Positions 3,971-12,550 of a stretch of DNA of 13,918 nt are shown piece after piece. Numbering within the stretch: the first letter of the stretch is position 1; the number at the start of each line of letters is the position of its first letter. The stretch lies in the IMG/VR virus record IMGVR_UViG_2695420480_000007; one strand, 5' to 3'. Source of the DNA: a virus. Taxonomy: Duplodnaviria > Heunggongvirae > Uroviricota > Caudoviricetes. Made by a program: the position numbers and the translations under genes. Below the pieces are notes generated by a model. It saw only the letters and a program-made list of their open reading frames with translations. It was not told the origin of the DNA and did not search any database.

Positions 3971-4079
3971 CACTTCTGTTACGCGCACCACAGATAGAGT
4001 TTCAGCTAAAACTTTTGTTCATACCTAGGAGTCTGCTGACGAGTGGTTTGTTCACTAATAAACACGTAAAAACGGTAAC

Positions 4080-4165
4080 GGCTGGACATCATTCAATATT
4101 CGCACTATTGGAAGTTCACCAGCCAGCCACAGCACGTTCTTGCATACAACGTGCCTGCGGTTTTT
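4080..4165 (+). repeat. Copy 2 of the paralogous element of about 80 nt
   Basis: 85% ungapped identity to 1411..1490. Flanking stem GGCTGG (4080..4085) / CCAGCC (4119..4124) corresponds to GATGG/CCATC in copy 1, which is one compensatory A-T to C-G change. Confidence 0.5.
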
Positions 4166-4255: not shown

Positions 4256-5125
<870 letters not shown>

Positions 5126-5147
5126 GTCTTTAAGTGATAAGCATAAA

Positions 5148-5186
5148 CCGCAGCACGATCTTCTTGCATACGACGTGCTACGGTTT
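5148..5186 (+). repeat. Copy 3 (shortened) of the paralogous element, between the GIY-YIG stop and the invertase stop
   Basis: ccgcagcacgatcttcttgcatacgacgtgctacggttt aligns with the core of copies 1 and 2. It contains a potential 6-bp stem AGCACG/CGTGCT. A mirrored copy lies at 8275..8313 inside the inverted duplication. Confidence 0.45.
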
Positions 5187-5740
5187 CATTTATCTCCGAC
5201 CGGAAACTTCTTATACAGTGTCGATATACCAACATCATAGATGATCGCCACCTTCTGGCGAGGAACGCCTGATGCAATTAATCGCCCGGCCTGCGCCCAT
5301 TGTTCTGGTGTAAGTTTGGGACGACGTCCCCCAATTCGTCCCTGTGCGCGAGCAGCTTCCAGTCCAGCTTTTGTTCGTTCAACAATCAGTTCTCGTTCCA
5401 TTTCAGCCAAGGCACCCATCACATGAAAGAAAAAACGCCCCATCGGTGTGCTGGTATCAATAGCATCCGTCAGGCTGCGAAAATTAACGCCACGTTCGCG
5501 CAACTCCTCAACCAGAATGACCAGATGCCGCATACTACGCCCCAGCCGATCCAGCTTCCAGACAACCAGAGTGTCACCTGCCGATAATGTCCTGAGCAGT
5601 TTTTTCAGTCCCGGCCTTTCGGACTTTGTACCGCTTATCTTGTCTTCAAAAATAAGCTCGCATCCTGCACAGTTCAGCGCATTACGTTGTAGATCTGTGT
5701 TCTGGTCATTTGTTGATACGCGTACATAGCCAATAAGCAT
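5186..5740 (-). CDS. Serine recombinase, DNA invertase of the Pin/Gin/Hin/Cin (Din) family, copy 1
   Basis: Track ORF 5186..5776; the likely start is the internal Met giving MLIGYVRVSTNDQ… (184 aa, the Din-invertase length), with catalytic-Ser region YVRVST and a C-terminal HTH. 100% identical to copy 2. Confidence 0.85.
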   Translation of the reverse strand: MLIGYVRVSTNDQNTDLQRNALNCAGCELIFEDKISGTKSERPGLKKLLRTLSAGDTLVVWKLDRLGRSMRHLVILVEELRERGVNFRSLTDAIDTSTPMGRFFFHVMGALAEMERELIVERTKAGLEAARAQGRIGGRRPKLTPEQWAQAGRLIASGVPRQKVAIIYDVGISTLYKKFPVGDK

Positions 5741-5794
5741 GGTAGATCCCCCTGACAAAAGCAGGAATGATGCCATTTGCTCGTTATTTCTGCA

Positions 5795-5820
5795 TTTTCA
5801 TAAATGTTGGTTTGGGAGAA
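5795..5820. other. 26-bp Din-invertase crossover site (hix/gix-like), site 1
   Basis: TTTTCATAAATG-TT-GGTTTGGGAGAA; the inner half-site is the reverse complement of TTCTCCCAAACC. Exact inverted copy of site 2; the duplication boundary falls at its central dinucleotide. Confidence 0.5.
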
Positions 5821-6288
5821 GGTTCGGCATTACCCGTTGGTGTGCCTGTTCCGTGGCCTTCCGCCACTCCGCCAACAGGCTGGCTGAAATGCAACGGCGC
5901 GGCTTTCTCTGCTGAAGAATACCCGGAACTGGCAAAGGCTTATCCAACAAATAAATTACCTGATTTACGCGGTGAGTTTATTCGTGGCTGGGATGACGGG
6001 CGCGGTATTGATGCAGGACGTGTTTTATTGAGTATTCAGGCCGGAATGCTGGAAAAGCACCGTCATCCTGTTGTCGCCAACGATGGGTATGACTCAAAAG
6101 AGGAATGGGAACTGGCGACAATCTTCAGAAGAGCATATACGCAAGGCAGGGGGCTTGATGCTGCCGCTGCCGGAGGGAGTCTGATCCCATCACCGACACT
6201 TCATTCACGAGGGAGTATCGGTAATACTGGCGGGAGTGAAACCCGTCCACGAAATATTGCATTTAACTTTATCGTGAGGGCTGCATAA
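5809..6288 (+). CDS. Silent tail-fibre C-terminal variable cassette (Sv'), start-less in the current orientation
   Basis: Track ORF 5767..6288; its first 18 aa are read-through across the crossover site. The cassette (…GWLKCNGAAFSAEEYPELAKAYP…LPDLRGEFIRGWDDGRGID…) resembles Mu/P1/e14-type fibre C-terminal domains. Its stop overlaps the tfa' start (TAATG). Confidence 0.6.
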   Translation, partial: GLGEGSALPVGVPVPWPSATPPTGWLKCNGAAFSAEEYPELAKAYPTNKLPDLRGEFIRGWDDGRGIDAGRVLLSIQAGMLEKHRHPVVANDGYDSKEEWELATIFRRAYTQGRGLDAAAAGGSLIPSPTLHSRGSIGNTGGSETRPRNIAFNFIVRAA

Positions 6289-6890
6289 TGGATAACGCCG
6301 TATTAAATAGCGAGCTTATTGCCACGAAGGCGGGGAATATTACCGTCTATAACTATGATGGTGAAACTCGGGAATATATGTCTACTTCAAATGAATATCT
6401 TGCCATTGGTGTCGGTATCCCTGCATATTCCTGTTTAGATGCCCCTGGCACACATAAGGCGGGTTATGCTATCTGCCGTTCGATTGATTTAAACTCATGG
6501 GAATATGTGCCAGACCATCGCGGTGAAATCGTCTATAACACCGAAACGAGAGACGCCAAAGAAATCACAGCTCCGGGTGATTATCCTGAAAATACAACCA
6601 CTATCGCCCCGTTAACGCCATACGATAAATGGGATGGTAAGAAATGGGTGACCGATACTGAGGCACAGCATAGCGCCGCAGTAGAAGCGGCAGAAGCACA
6701 GCGCCAGTTGCTGATTGATGCTGCTATGGCTTCCATCAGTCTGATTCAGCTGAAATTGCAGGCCGGGCGGAAGCTGACGCAGGCAGAAATCACCCGCCTT
6801 AACGCTGTACTGGATTACATTGACGCGGTGACGGCAACAAATACCAGCACAGCGCCGGATGTCATCTGGCCTGAATTGCCGGAGGCGTAG
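6288..6890 (+). CDS. Tail fibre assembly protein (Tfa', 200 aa; U'-like)
   Basis: 200-aa ORF translationally coupled to Sv'; Tfa-like composition and C-terminus. Converges on and overlaps the opposite-strand tfa by 29 nt, as in Mu G and e14 P segments. Confidence 0.75.
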   Translation: MDNAVLNSELIATKAGNITVYNYDGETREYMSTSNEYLAIGVGIPAYSCLDAPGTHKAGYAICRSIDLNSWEYVPDHRGEIVYNTETRDAKEITAPGDYPENTTTIAPLTPYDKWDGKKWVTDTEAQHSAAVEAAEAQRQLLIDAAMASISLIQLKLQAGRKLTQAEITRLNAVLDYIDAVTATNTSTAPDVIWPELPEA

Positions 6891-7293
6891 GCCATTCAAT
6901 ATCTGGATCACTGGAGGTATCAATCAGTTCCAGTGCGTCCAGATAATCCAGCCACAGATTATATTGCGCCAGTTCCTCGCCTTTCAGACGACCAATAGCG
7001 GCTTTACCGGGCCATTGCTTACTGTTCATGTATTCGTTGGCCTGATTAACTAATCGCTGTTTATTTGATTCAGCGATTGTGATTAATTCTTCGCTGGTAA
7101 GTGGTGGCGCATCCTGCCATATTGGAAAACCATTTTTATCTGAACCAAGTATTTTACCATCAGGCCATGCAACTCCTGCGAACTCAGAATAAATAGTAAA
7201 GTTTATTTTCGTAGCGTTCTCAGGAATGGTTTGGCTATCTGGTGAAATATAAAACCCCGAATCAGAGGGATTAAAATAATATGTCTTTTCCAT
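6862..7293 (-). CDS. Tail fibre assembly protein (Tfa, 143 aa; U-like), copy A
   Basis: 143-aa ORF, identical to 8700..9131. ATG 2 nt after the stop of the upstream Sv cassette. Confidence 0.75.
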   Translation of the reverse strand: MEKTYYFNPSDSGFYISPDSQTIPENATKINFTIYSEFAGVAWPDGKILGSDKNGFPIWQDAPPLTSEELITIAESNKQRLVNQANEYMNSKQWPGKAAIGRLKGEELAQYNLWLDYLDALELIDTSSDPDIEWPTPPAIQAR

Positions 7294-7295
7294 AG

Positions 7296-7653
7296 TTAAT
7301 ACCCCACAGCCATCCAGTAAATTGAATTTGTTGTAGCAGAAGTGTAAGTAAATCTGATTTTAGTTCTGTTGGTACTTCCAATATCAAAGCCCACAGAACG
7401 GGCAGAAGGATCATTAGTTGAAATAAGAGCATTTACCGAACGACAAGCCGCAGGGAAAGCTACAGGTAATGTTATATCAACTGTTCCAACACTTCCTCCG
7501 GTTGGTGAGACAGAAAAACTCCCCCATTGAATAATCATCCCCCCAGGTAATTTCTGGTATCCATTGGCGGTCAATGAGTTACCAAAGCTGTTCATATCCG
7601 GTACCTGATTTTCTCCTGTCCCCACATTCCTTTTTGCTGCTTCTCCCAAACCA
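7296..7653 (-). CDS. Tail-fibre variable cassette Sv, duplicate copy not fused to a constant region (silent)
   Basis: Track ORF 7296..7694; identical to the C-terminal 118 aa of the stf gene at 9134..9781. Here the sequence upstream of the site is the invertase leader, not the fibre constant region. Confidence 0.6.
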
Positions 7654-7666
7654 ACATTTATGAAAA
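7641..7666. other. 26-bp Din-invertase crossover site, site 2
   Basis: TTCTCCCAAACC-AA-CATTTATGAAAA. The left half plus central AA (7641..7654) is identical to site 3 (9479..9492); the right half is identical to the outer half of site 1. Confidence 0.5.
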
Positions 7667-7720
7667 TGCAGAAATAACGAGCAAATGGCATCATTCCTGC
7701 TTTTGTCAGGGGGATCTACC

Positions 7721-8275
7721 ATGCTTATTGGCTATGTACGCGTATCAACAAATGACCAGAACACAGATCTACAACGTAATGCGCTGAACTGTGCAGGATG
7801 CGAGCTTATTTTTGAAGACAAGATAAGCGGTACAAAGTCCGAAAGGCCGGGACTGAAAAAACTGCTCAGGACATTATCGGCAGGTGACACTCTGGTTGTC
7901 TGGAAGCTGGATCGGCTGGGGCGTAGTATGCGGCATCTGGTCATTCTGGTTGAGGAGTTGCGCGAACGTGGCGTTAATTTTCGCAGCCTGACGGATGCTA
8001 TTGATACCAGCACACCGATGGGGCGTTTTTTCTTTCATGTGATGGGTGCCTTGGCTGAAATGGAACGAGAACTGATTGTTGAACGAACAAAAGCTGGACT
8101 GGAAGCTGCTCGCGCACAGGGACGAATTGGGGGACGTCGTCCCAAACTTACACCAGAACAATGGGCGCAGGCCGGGCGATTAATTGCATCAGGCGTTCCT
8201 CGCCAGAAGGTGGCGATCATCTATGATGTTGGTATATCGACACTGTATAAGAAGTTTCCGGTCGGAGATAAATGA
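7721..8275 (+). CDS. Serine recombinase, DNA invertase of the Pin/Gin/Hin/Cin family, copy 2
   Basis: Track ORF 7685..8275; ATG 7721 preceded by AGGGGG 8 nt upstream. Identical to copy 1 in inverted orientation. Confidence 0.85.
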   Translation: MLIGYVRVSTNDQNTDLQRNALNCAGCELIFEDKISGTKSERPGLKKLLRTLSAGDTLVVWKLDRLGRSMRHLVILVEELRERGVNFRSLTDAIDTSTPMGRFFFHVMGALAEMERELIVERTKAGLEAARAQGRIGGRRPKLTPEQWAQAGRLIASGVPRQKVAIIYDVGISTLYKKFPVGDK

Positions 8276-8313
8276 AACCGTAGCACGTCGTATGCAAGAA
8301 GATCGTGCTGCGG
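8275..8313 (-). repeat. Inverted copy of element copy 3
   Basis: Reverse complement of 5148..5186, lying within the 985-bp inverted duplication. Confidence 0.45.
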
Positions 8314-8335
8314 TTTATGCTTATCACTTAAAGAC

Positions 8336-8625
8336 TCAAAAATCAGGTGAGTAACGGACCGGGGACATAGCTCCTTTTTTTCTTAATTCATCTGGTATTT
8401 TTTTTCCAAGATAAAGATTTGCTATTTCAGGTGGGGCTTCTCGACCTTCAAAACCATAGCGAGAACTTTGTGTTGCCTCAAAGTCCGGATCCTCGTCCCA
8501 GTATTTCATCGTAGGGAAATTTTCACGTGTTGATTTGAGCCATTTATCAGCAATGAAAACCCCTCGAACGATCCCCCTTACAGTAGCAAGAATGACTTCT
8601 GCTTGGCTGGCGCGAGAGACATTAA
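8336..8625 (-). pseudogene. 3' fragment of the GIY-YIG gene (codons 180..274), inverted duplicate
   Basis: Reverse complement of 4836..5125, exact. Track ORF 8336..8761 is a chimera of this with antisense tfa sequence. Confidence 0.7.
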
Positions 8626-8728
8626 AATCACCCGCCTTAACGCTGTACTGGATTACATTGACGCGGTGACGGCAACAAATACCAGCACAGCGCCGGATGT
8701 CATCTGGCCTGAATTGCCGGAGGCGTAG
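8625..8728 (+). pseudogene. 3' fragment of tfa' (direct duplicate of 6787..6890)
   Basis: Identical to the end of the 200-aa tfa' gene but lacks its 5' 500 bp; begins at the non-site junction at 8625. Confidence 0.6.
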
Positions 8729-9131
8729 GCCATTCAATATCTGGATCACTGGAGGTATCAATCAGTTCCAGTGCGTCCAGATAATCCAGCCACAGATTAT
8801 ATTGCGCCAGTTCCTCGCCTTTCAGACGACCAATAGCGGCTTTACCGGGCCATTGCTTACTGTTCATGTATTCGTTGGCCTGATTAACTAATCGCTGTTT
8901 ATTTGATTCAGCGATTGTGATTAATTCTTCGCTGGTAAGTGGTGGCGCATCCTGCCATATTGGAAAACCATTTTTATCTGAACCAAGTATTTTACCATCA
9001 GGCCATGCAACTCCTGCGAACTCAGAATAAATAGTAAAGTTTATTTTCGTAGCGTTCTCAGGAATGGTTTGGCTATCTGGTGAAATATAAAACCCCGAAT
9101 CAGAGGGATTAAAATAATATGTCTTTTCCAT
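8700..9131 (-). CDS. Tail fibre assembly protein (Tfa, 143 aa), copy B, cognate to the expressed fibre
   Basis: Identical to 6862..7293; directly downstream of the stf gene. Confidence 0.8.
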
Positions 9132-9133
9132 AG

Positions 9134-9781
9134 TTAATACCCCACAGCCATCCAGTAAATTGAATTTGTTGTAGCAGAAGTGTAAGTAAATCTGATTTTA
9201 GTTCTGTTGGTACTTCCAATATCAAAGCCCACAGAACGGGCAGAAGGATCATTAGTTGAAATAAGAGCATTTACCGAACGACAAGCCGCAGGGAAAGCTA
9301 CAGGTAATGTTATATCAACTGTTCCAACACTTCCTCCGGTTGGTGAGACAGAAAAACTCCCCCATTGAATAATCATCCCCCCAGGTAATTTCTGGTATCC
9401 ATTGGCGGTCAATGAGTTACCAAAGCTGTTCATATCCGGTACCTGATTTTCTCCTGTCCCCACATTCCTTTTTGCTGCTTCTCCCAAACCAAGGTTTTCG
9501 AGAGCCGTTTTCACCGTGCCATCCGATTTGATATCGCCAAACGGATTCTTGCGGCTTAACAGCAGCGCGCGAAGTGCGGTAAGTAACTGGTCGTGCCGCC
9601 CCTTCTCCAGGCTGGCACCGGATGCCTCCACCACACTGCAAAGTTCCTCCTGCAACATGTCAAAGTAGTCATCATCCAGATCGGTGGCAGGCGTGCCGGT
9701 CTGGGGGTTACCACGGGTAAAACCGTTCTTACCCGCGCCGAACTTATCCTTCTGCGCGGTTTTCGTGTCTATACGATGCAT
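9134..9781 (-). CDS. Side tail fibre protein (about 97-aa constant N-terminal region fused to the Sv variable region), 215 aa
   Basis: ATG at 9781 with GGAG 7 nt upstream. N-terminus [21 protein letters not shown]… looks like a short e14/Mu-type fibre constant part; the constant/variable junction (…ENLGLGE|AAKRN…) coincides with crossover site 3. Confidence 0.75.
9479..9504. other. 26-bp Din-invertase crossover site inside the stf gene (best palindrome), site 3
   Basis: TTCTCCCAAACC-AA-GGTTTTCGAGAG, close to hixL as I recall it (TTCTTGAAAACC-AA-GGTTTTTGATAA, from memory). Sits at the fibre constant/variable boundary. Confidence 0.6.
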
Positions 9782-9784
9782 GGA

Positions 9785-9916
9785 TTACTCCGGATAACCG
9801 GGGTTTTCACCCGGTGCCGACCGCGCACGGCGCATCACCAGCCGACGGGCATCACGCATATGACGCTGACCAATCGTGACAAACGCCCGCCGGACACGGG
9901 CGCGGTTAAAGCGCAT
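9785..9916 (-). CDS. Small Arg-rich hypothetical protein (43 aa), possible late-operon remnant
   Basis: ATG overlaps the end of the upstream reading frame; stop is 3 nt before the stf ATG. Not in the ORF track (short). Confidence 0.25.
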   Translation of the reverse strand: MRFNRARVRRAFVTIGQRHMRDARRLVMRRARSAPGENPGYPE

Positions 9917-9935
9917 CTCCGCGGGCTGCTGAAAA

Positions 9936-10235
9936 TCAACGTGCAAAAAGGAAGTCGCCATTGCTGCCTCCGTGACTCTGCGTAAATTCGCCCAGTTCCG
10001 TACACTCCAGCAGCAGAAAGCGCCGCGCCCCGTTCAGATCGCGCTGACGTTTCACCCGGTACACACTGTCACCGCAGACCACCTCATAATCAGCGGTGAT
10101 CCCCCGGCGGTAGCGAATGGTGATGTAATGGGTGATGGCGTCCCCGGTCTGCGCGGTTTCCTGCCAGGTGGTGGCACTGGTCTGGATAACCTTCGCCCAT
10201 GTCCGGAACGTAACCGGGTACCCTGGCGACGCGCC
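9936..10235 (-). pseudogene. 5'-truncated phage head-tail joining/adaptor-like gene fragment
   Basis: A frame with no start codon reads …VTFRTWAKVIQTSATTWQETAQTGDAITHYITIRYRRGITADYEVVCGDSVYRVKRQRDLNGARRFLLLECTELGEF…, resembling the head-tail joining family pattern. GC-rich (about 60%). Confidence 0.4.
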
Positions 10236-10453
10236 TTACGCGTTAACCAGCCTTCTGCTTCCAGCCGTGCGATAGCCGTTCTGACGGTACTCATCCCCGC
10301 GCCAATCTGACGGGCAATGGTTTCAATTGATGGCCAGCACACACCTTCGTCATTACTGAAATCAGCCAGGCGGGCCATAATTGCCACGCTGGATAATTTC
10401 ATGCCTGACGCTGCGCAACCATCCCATACATAGCCGGTTAATTTAGTGCTCAT
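10052..10453 (-). pseudogene. Chimeric ORF: authentic N-terminal HTH domain (about 77 aa) of a phage replication/regulatory protein, then out-of-frame read-through
   Basis: [13 protein letters not shown]…SIETIARQIGAGMSTVRTAIARLEAEGWLTRKARRQG is a clean winged-HTH N-terminus. After RQG (about 10220..10228) the frame reads low-complexity Pro/Arg/Gly text while another frame carries the head-tail joining fragment. Confidence 0.5.
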
Positions 10454-10664
10454 GACCGACCTCTATTTCCCTGAATTTACGACGAAACTGTTCGAGCGGG
10501 CTGAAGCACTCATGCTCATAGCCTTCACGGAGGTAGATAACCCGTTGTGTTTCCGGCTCCCAACGAATGACTCTGACGGGCACTCCGTAGTGATCTTTGA
10601 ACCAGCGATTAACTTGTCGCAAAGGACTGTCTCCTTCTGCCGGTTGAAATCCCCCACAGCCCAC
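10443..10664 (-). CDS. Small hypothetical protein (73 aa)
   Basis: GTG start; its stop overlaps the start of the downstream HTH gene by 11 nt (operonic). No domain recognised with confidence. Confidence 0.4.
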
Positions 10665-10764
10665 TCTGCAAAGCTGTGGGTTACAATTTCCCTGTCGGGG
10701 ACCTTGAAAACGTCAATATCACTCACTGGGCAGTAATGCCAAAAGCACCGGAGGCTGGAGCATA

Positions 10765-11420: not shown

Positions 11421-12460
11421 AGGCTGAAGCATGGCGGGTCAGCAAACTTGGTGAAATACCTGATATAACGTTCGAGGAAGCGTGTGTCAGGTGGCTTGAA
11501 GAGAAAGCACATAAAAAATCACTGGACGATGACAAAAGCCGGATCGGATTCTGGCTTCAACATTTCGCAGGAATGCAACTAAGAGACATTACTGAATCAA
11601 AAATTTATTCAGCAATGCAGAAAATGACGAACCGGCGTCATGAGGAAAACTGGAAACTCAGGGCAGAAGCATGCAGAAAAAAAGGGAAACCTGTTCCAGA
11701 ATACACGCCAAAACCAGCGTCCGTTGCAACGAAGGCTACGCATCTTTCATTTATAAAGGCCCTACTAAGAGCCGCAGAGCGTGAATGGAAAATGCTGGAT
11801 AAGGCACCAATTATTAAAGTGCCTCAACCAAAGAATAAACGGATCCGCTGGCTGGAGCCCCATGAAGCACAAAGGCTGATTGATGAATGTCCGGAGCCAT
11901 TAAAGTCTGTTGTTGAATTTGCACTGGCAACAGGCTTAAGACGCTCGAACATCATCAACCTTGAATGGCAACAAATAGATATGCAGCGCCGGGTGGCATG
12001 GATAAACCCGGAAGAGAGTAAATCAAACCGCGCAATTGGCGTTGCGCTGAATGATACTGCATGTCGCGTATTGAAAAAACAAATCGGGAATCATCACCGT
12101 TGGGTATTTGTGTACAAGGAAAGCTGTACCAAACCAGACGGAACGAAAGCGCCAACAGTAAGGAAGATGCGGTATGACGCAAACACAGCCTGGAAAGCGG
12201 CGCTGAGACGGGCTGGTATTGATGATTTCAGATTTCACGACTTGAGACACACCTGGGCAAGTTGGCTGGTTCAAGCCGGAGTCCCGTTGTCAGTGTTACA
12301 GGAAATGGGAGGCTGGGAGTCTATCGAAATGGTTCGTCGATATGCTCACCTTGCACCTAATCACCTTACCGAACACGCACGGCAAATAGACTCGATCCTG
12401 AACCCATCGGTCCCAAATTTGTCCCAGTCAAAAAATAAGGAAGGTACTAATGATGTGTAA
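11297..12460 (+). CDS. int: Tyrosine site-specific integrase, P22/thrW-targeting family
   Basis: 387-aa ORF with SD GAGGA. N-terminus [47 protein letters not shown] matches my recollection of P22 Int; C-terminal catalytic region has R…HDLRHT…Y. Ends 14 bp from the thrW 3' end. Confidence 0.9.
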
Positions 12461-12474
12461 CTTATTGATTTAAA

Positions 12475-12550
12475 TGGTGCCGATAATAGGAGTCGAACCT
12501 ACGACCTTCGCATTACGAATGCGCTGCTCTACCAACTGAGCTATATCGGC
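12475..12550 (-). tRNA. thrW: tRNA-Thr (anticodon CGU)
   Basis: Reverse complement gives a 76-nt tRNA: GCCGATATAGCTCAGTTGGTAGAGCAGCGCATTCGTAATGCG…GGTTCGACTCC…CACCA, with anticodon loop tTCGTaa, T-loop and encoded CCA. Adjacent to proA as in E. coli/Salmonella. Confidence 0.9.

Follow-up and report, generated by a model that had tools for sequence, protein, structure and literature searches.

The Gin/G segment of phage Mu, the Cin/C segment of P1, and the Hin/H segment of Salmonella each combine a small serine recombinase with inverted 26-bp sites that have a 2-bp center. Inversion in Mu and P1 swaps the C termini of the tail fibers (PMC3798978; PMC4134206), and Hin and Gin work with a Fis-dependent recombinational enhancer, located within the 5' part of the invertase gene in known members (PMC3798978). 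The e14 P segment of E. coli K-12 inverts at CCTTCTCCCAAACCAA and its complement and was found inverted in 33% of 562 genomes; its inversion products (StfE2) are reported to block adsorption of phage T2 (PMC12529663). Invertible phage tail regions are also a recognized hazard for genome assembly. Forde et al. (2014), working with E. coli EC958, warned of artifactual duplications at such regions, which are created when the alternative allele is merged into the chromosome (PMC4134206).

Here, we analyze a locus of this kind in a window of 13,918 nt, by which we mean the whole stretch of DNA under study (Table 1). At thrW, a prophage remnant carries this locus, an inversion switch of the e14 Pin/P-segment type. 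The locus is a private mosaic; a search for a complete genome sharing its right-hand context found none. The mosaic remnant lies beside an integrase, a tRNA-Thr (12475-12550), and proA, and this tRNA was the sole match in an Rfam scan of the window. The 184-aa invertase carries the Pfam domains PF00239 (E 9e-52) and PF02796 (E 5e-13) and is identical to K-12 PinE at 175/184 residues, and the gene order matches e14 ymfQ-stfP-tfaP-tfaE-stfE-pinE. Among the features of a Din-family, e14-type system that we tested, we found the recombinase domains, the paired sites with an AA center, the mirror-image cassettes, and both orientations. The window additionally displays an inverted second copy of the invertase region, a direct second copy of one cassette, and a third crossover site. 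In our assessment, this apparent duplication is very likely an assembly or scaffolding artifact in a draft E. coli genome, superimposed on a known active invertase switch.

Table 1. Features of the 13,918-nt window and of the blocks, genes, crossover sites, and joint discussed in the text (rc, reverse complement).
Feature	Position	Strand	Description
Source window	13,918 nt	+	Layout X-A-C-B-rcA-B'-D
X	to 4835		First block of the plus-strand layout
Block A	4836-5821		3' part of LEM-3-like gene, 184-aa serine invertase (-), site 1
Block C	5822-6786		With B, holds both cassettes and two Caudo_TAP chaperone genes
Block B	6787-7654		With C, holds Collar and Gp53-like_C tail fiber C-terminal cassettes in mirror arrangement
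rcA	7640-8625		Inverted copy of A
B'	8625-9492		Direct copy of B
D	from 9493		Constant 5' part of 215-aa tail fiber gene
Invertible P-type segment (the real one)	5809..7652		Both cassettes plus tfa' and tfa; Pfam domains
Collar-type cassette	5770-6288	+	Inside invertible segment; Pfam domains
Chaperone tfa'	6288-6890	+	Inside invertible segment; Pfam domains
Chaperone tfa	6862-7293	-	Inside invertible segment; Pfam domains
gp53-like cassette	from 7296	-	Inside invertible segment; Pfam domains
pinE-type serine DNA invertase, 184 aa, genuine copy	5186..5740	-	Resolvase and HTH_7
LEM-3-like GIY-YIG gene	4352..5125	+	Convergent with pin; repeat boundary 4836 inside gene
Inverted second copy of pin region	7655..8624		100% identical to 4837-5806; ends at N
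pin, second copy	7721-8275	+	Within 7655..8624
LEM-3-like 3' fragment	8336-8624	-	Within 7655..8624
Direct second copy of cassette B	8626..9492		Copy correctly joined to constant part via site 3
tfa, second copy	8700-9131	-	Within direct copy of cassette B
215-aa tail fiber gene with gp53-like C-terminal part	9134-9781	-	In-frame fusion across site 3
Crossover site 1, pin-proximal	5795..5820	-	TTCTCCCAAACC AA CATTTATGAAAA on minus strand; center 5807-5808
Crossover site 2	7641..7666	+	Reverse complement of site 1 over 26/26 bp; center 7653-7654
Crossover site 3, adjoining constant tail fiber part	9479..9504	+	TTCTCCCAAACC AA GGTTTTCGAGAG
Only novel joint of the duplication	8625		N in GCA_001277415.1 CXZE01000004.1, A in window

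Every position of the window was scored against TTYTCNNAAACCNNGGTTTNNGARAA, which has 20 specified consensus positions. Exactly three hix-like 26-bp sites emerged, sites 1 and 2 matching at 18/20 positions and site 3 at 19/20, with the next-best position at 13/20. These are the three sites of the original prediction, which also held that site 2 shares one half with each of the others; the sequences bear this out, as TTCTCCCAAACC plus AA is common to sites 2 and 3 and CATTTATGAAAA is common to sites 2 and 1. Alignment of the three sites and their flanks returns the half-sites as claimed but shows in addition that reverse-complementing site 1 gives site 2 across its entire length. Sites 1 and 3 are in inverted orientation with AA at the center of both, and the same pair is found in 15 relatives. 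Site 3 is at the same time coding sequence, specifying ..ENLGLGE.. of the 215-aa tail fiber protein.

Two exact repeats define the duplicated material: a direct repeat of 868 nt (6787-7654 = 8625-9492), the first copy of which finishes on the second A of the central dinucleotide, at 7654, and an inverted repeat of 986 nt (4836-5821 = rc 7640-8625). Both had been said to end at position 7653/7654. This is true of the direct repeat, but the inverted repeat spans all of site 2 and ends at 7640. The two thus overlap by 15 nt at 7640-7654, CTTCTCCCAAACCAA, because the inner half-sites of sites 1 and 3 are identical, as they are in 16/16 related loci examined, including K-12 e14. The point of exchange can therefore be placed only within 7640-7654, an interval that contains the central dinucleotide without singling it out, and the claim of a breakpoint exactly on that dinucleotide is not confirmed.

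The outer, pin-proximal half-site (5809-5820, 7655-7666) is less uniform. It reads CATTTATGAAAA here versus CGTTTATGAAAA in most related loci, including K-12 e14, a G-to-A change at the second base from the center, and a few related loci carry other variants. Separately, a 26-nt imperfect inverted repeat (22/26 complementary, not hix-like) brackets pin at 4866-4891 and 5745-5770. One arm is in the LEM-3-like gene, toward its 3' end, and the other shortly precedes the start of pin; the copies of this repeat in the second pin region are at 7691-7716 and 8570-8595.

Together with its flanks, site 2 links cassette B to the pin side, the arrangement that the switch routinely adopts when flipped. 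In 448/5,426 complete E. coli genomes, a 121-nt probe spanning this site was contiguous, and the 132-aa open reading frame (ORF) that crosses it was found exactly on 285 contigs, compared with 342 for the 215-aa fusion across site 3. The junction is therefore not new. The proposal that site 2 is a product of strand exchange survives to this extent: exchange between sites 1 and 3 does give the B-pin junction, which is not, however, the junction of a duplication.

It is also of note for the products of the switch that the cassette next to pin always gains the same 18-aa leader, MMPFARYFCIFINVGLGE (5767-6288 on the plus strand, 7296-7694 on the minus strand), encoded by the pin-proximal side plus the site. 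The 132-aa product is StfE2-like, consisting of this leader and the gp53-like C terminus, and is annotated on hundreds of contigs.

With site 2 accounted for, the duplication has a single novel joint, at 8625. When reverse-complemented, GCA_001277415.1 CXZE01000004.1 matches the window at all but one of 13,867 compared bases, and the exception falls at 8625, where the public record has N. The N coincides with the end of both exact repeats, and no N occurs at any other repeat boundary of the record. The joint is therefore a scaffold gap of one N, across which no sequence was ever read. The A shown there in the window happens to lengthen each repeat by one base; ambiguous bases had apparently been turned into A in the window (position 11829 of the matching locus).

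The joint also lacks any sign of the invertase or of independent occurrence. No hix-like site or quasi-site was found at its parental positions, 4836 and 6787, where the best matches (5-6 of 20 positions) are at background and which lie inside genes. We found no match to the joint in 5,426 complete E. coli genomes, in species-representative genomes (searched with two patterns), or in JGI metagenomes, and the hybrid ORF that spans it (8336-8761, with four alternative starts) was absent from the protein collection on exact look-up. Two apparent matches proved to be an unrelated deletion variant without pin. This variant (NZ_AP022245.1 5497-7064; strains WP8-S18-CRE-02 and GSH8M-2) has lost pin and one cassette, leaving the LEM-3-like gene ~140 bp from a tfa fragment. 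As the joint is unsequenced and has no independent occurrence, the duplication fails both of these tests for a genuine rearrangement, and we therefore do not regard it as a real feature.

These results bear directly on the idea, central to the original prediction, that the duplication is the work of the invertase itself, through strand exchange at two different sites that might, for example, lie on sister molecules. A site 2 with the flank of site 3 on one side and that of site 1 on the other is what such an exchange would leave behind, but the ordinary flipped state has the same structure. Moreover, exchange between sites 1 and 3 yields an inversion and not a duplication, and intermolecular exchange would produce rearrangements of the whole replicon and not a 1.8-kb insert. 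The second joint that the duplication requires has no site and is an N in the record. We consider this origin highly improbable.

Alternatively, the inverted duplication could be real and have arisen in one step by template switching during replication. The nascent strand would leave the end of B for the complementary strand at site 1 by way of the 15-bp inverted core, rcA would be copied, and synthesis would then return to 6787 with 1 nt of microhomology. Fold-back and template-switch rearrangements show short-overlap junctions of this type, and the overlaps of 15 nt at 7640-7654 and 1 nt at 8625 match them. Ordinary inversion, however, suffices to explain the B-rcA junction, the record has an N at the joint, and siblings of the isolate are single copy, which makes this route very unlikely as well.

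The siblings just mentioned are informative, as they carry the same DNA. A sister assembly from a neighboring accession batch, GCA_001277735.1 (CXZH01000003.1), has flank lengths that differ by only 93 and 4 nt. Over positions 5138-8040 of the single-copy form (C0), it is base for base the single-copy orientation 1, with no N, and C-B-site 3-D is contiguous. GCA_019513185.1 shares the mosaic context and is identical to the single-copy flipped form over 7,432/7,432 nt. The Logan DRR567778 contigs, again in this context, are 100% identical to the collapsed flipped single-copy form. Each exact-match contig from Logan and ENA fits one single-copy orientation or the other. Identical DNA occurs in orientation 1 in two sequences and flipped in three, and the inverted copy of the pin region is absent from the sibling assemblies. 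Related E. coli genomes likewise have the single-copy layout X-A-C-B-D, and collapsing the window to one copy leaves it collinear with them across 4836 as well as across 6787, the two breakpoints.

The relatives also speak to a reading in which the window represents a natural multi-site inversion system, similar to Min of p15B or to a shufflon, with three functional sites and two invertase genes. Multi-site systems of the Din family are known (Sandmeier, Iida and Arber), and the window does contain three high-scoring sites. But all of the related loci that we examined (16/16) have two sites or fewer, and the third site here belongs to the duplicated DNA, which is 100% identical and stops at the N. 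Such a system is, in our view, hardly credible at this locus.

Another possibility is a real rearrangement private to this isolate, in which a 1,838-bp head-to-tail tandem duplication in a flipped-state cell was followed by Pin inversion. Illegitimate recombination with no more than 1 nt of microhomology would have duplicated pin, its crossover site, and cassette B. Inversion by Pin of the stretch from the distal copy of the site to site 3 would then account for the X-A-C-B-rcA-B-D layout, in which there are two invertase genes and three sites. Each step is of a common kind, collinearity with relatives extends over both breakpoints in the collapsed form, and a private event is expected to be missing from other assemblies. 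Inverting the window in silico between the centers of sites 1 and 3 also produced a perfect repeat with a period of 1,838 (4836-8512, 2.0005 copies). However, any A-C-B-rcA-B layout becomes a tandem repeat on inversion, and the in silico result is therefore not independent evidence. This lack of discrimination and the N at the joint both weaken the explanation. A real and unique joint would have been assembled through, true perfect repeats of 0.87-0.99 kb should have broken the draft at several boundaries and not at one, and only one copy is present in the sister assembly, whose contig ends are nearly the same. We regard a tandem duplication as unlikely. Were the duplication true, it would represent a three-site, two-invertase intermediate and a modest illustration of how Min-like multi-cassette systems might grow from a two-site switch.

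On the simplest reading, molecules of both orientations contributed to the assembly, and the same DNA entered it twice. In the chromosome, the PinE-type serine invertase flips a 1.85-kb segment between two inverted 26-bp sites, swapping the C-terminal cassette and chaperone that are fused to the constant 5' part of the tail fiber gene, and the real arrangement would alternate between X-A-C-B-D and X-A-rcB-rcC-D. The sequenced culture would have contained molecules in both orientations of the P segment. During scaffolding or gap filling, reads from flipped molecules probably carried one contig end out of cassette B, over the site, and into the pin region, and the opposite end was probably lengthened from the constant part back to cassette B. 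These extensions, which would have stopped at 4837 and 6788 without overlapping, would have been left joined by a single N, the A at 8625 of the window, and the outcome would be the layout X-A-C-B-rcA-B-D with its hybrid site 2.

This assembly reading takes in the N at the joint, the single-copy siblings with identical DNA, and a site 2 that is a normal flipped junction. The absence of N from the other repeat boundaries fits two extension fronts that met once and does not fit short-read assembly of true 0.9-kb repeats. The exact assembly step is one that we infer, and the behavior of SSPACE, GapFiller, or IMAGE is a conceivable, if unproven, source of it. GCA_001277415.1 very probably carries this misassembly.

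The one positive by-product of the misassembly is indirect evidence that the switch was active in the culture of the sequenced isolate. Among related strains, several short-read assemblies contain the invertible segment as a contig of its own, 1,848 bp long with a 15-nt core at either end, one example being Logan SRR15369622_236, which equals window positions 5807-7654. We read this stand-alone contig as a sign of an orientation-mixed culture, and it could serve as a simple marker of one.

Pin-mediated switching of e14-type tail fibers is already well described, and the main value of the present case is cautionary. In mixed cultures, invertible phage segments give rise to false duplications that look convincing in a draft genome; in this case, the breakpoints coincide with genuine recombinase sites. 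Rewriting the N as a base, as in the window, hides the one clue that exposes the scaffold gap.

It is also important to point out the setting in which the switch is found. No baseplate genes precede the 215-aa tail fiber gene (9134-10700 region), unlike in relatives; instead, there are a 58-aa ORF, a truncated replication-type "O protein" (10052-10453, 133 aa), DUF4222, yfdT, and the integrase. The 133-aa "O protein" is a rare protein. The switch persists here in a remnant unable to build a tail, which is of interest given the reported block of T2 adsorption by StfE2 (PMC12529663).

The window further contains a family of ~98-nt repeats, with copies at 1396-1493 and 4066-4163 (82% identity) and partial copies at 5150-5177 and 8284-8311. 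These share a 28-nt core, GCCGCAGCAAGTTCTTGCATACGACGTG, lie in or near intergenic stretches, and match no Rfam family. The first copy is followed by GGGTTCAACTCCCGCC (1488-1506), which resembles the 3' end of a tRNA.

Compared with the systems described above, the locus shares the small serine recombinase and site architecture of Gin, Cin, and Hin, but its invertase is a Pin-type orthologue. It is much like the e14 P segment, having the same order of constant part, site, cassette plus tfa, tfa' plus mirror cassette, site, and pin. The two agree exactly in the inner half-site core, CTTCTCCCAAACCAA, and in the Sc-proximal site, the published e14 inversion repeats (CCTTCTCCCAAACCAA and its complement) represent the same core (PMC12529663), and both orientations are common in genomes. 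It differs from e14 in belonging to another mosaic remnant, at thrW, with a LEM-3-like gene in place of mcrA and no upstream baseplate genes, in the G-to-A change that gives the pin-proximal half-site CATTTATGAAAA, and in the extra copy displayed by the window, which we take to be a product of assembly. The likeness to Min of p15B is superficial: in both, more than two crossover sites are served by a Din-family invertase, but the sites of Min are real and flank different cassettes, whereas the third site here is part of an exact copy bounded by a scaffold gap. EC958 offers a parallel, in that an orientation-mixed culture gives conflicting reads at the 26-bp sites. In EC958, the alternative arrangements appeared as separate PacBio contigs, whereas here the extra copy is internal to a scaffold, with one N as its link, and the draft was apparently built from short reads.
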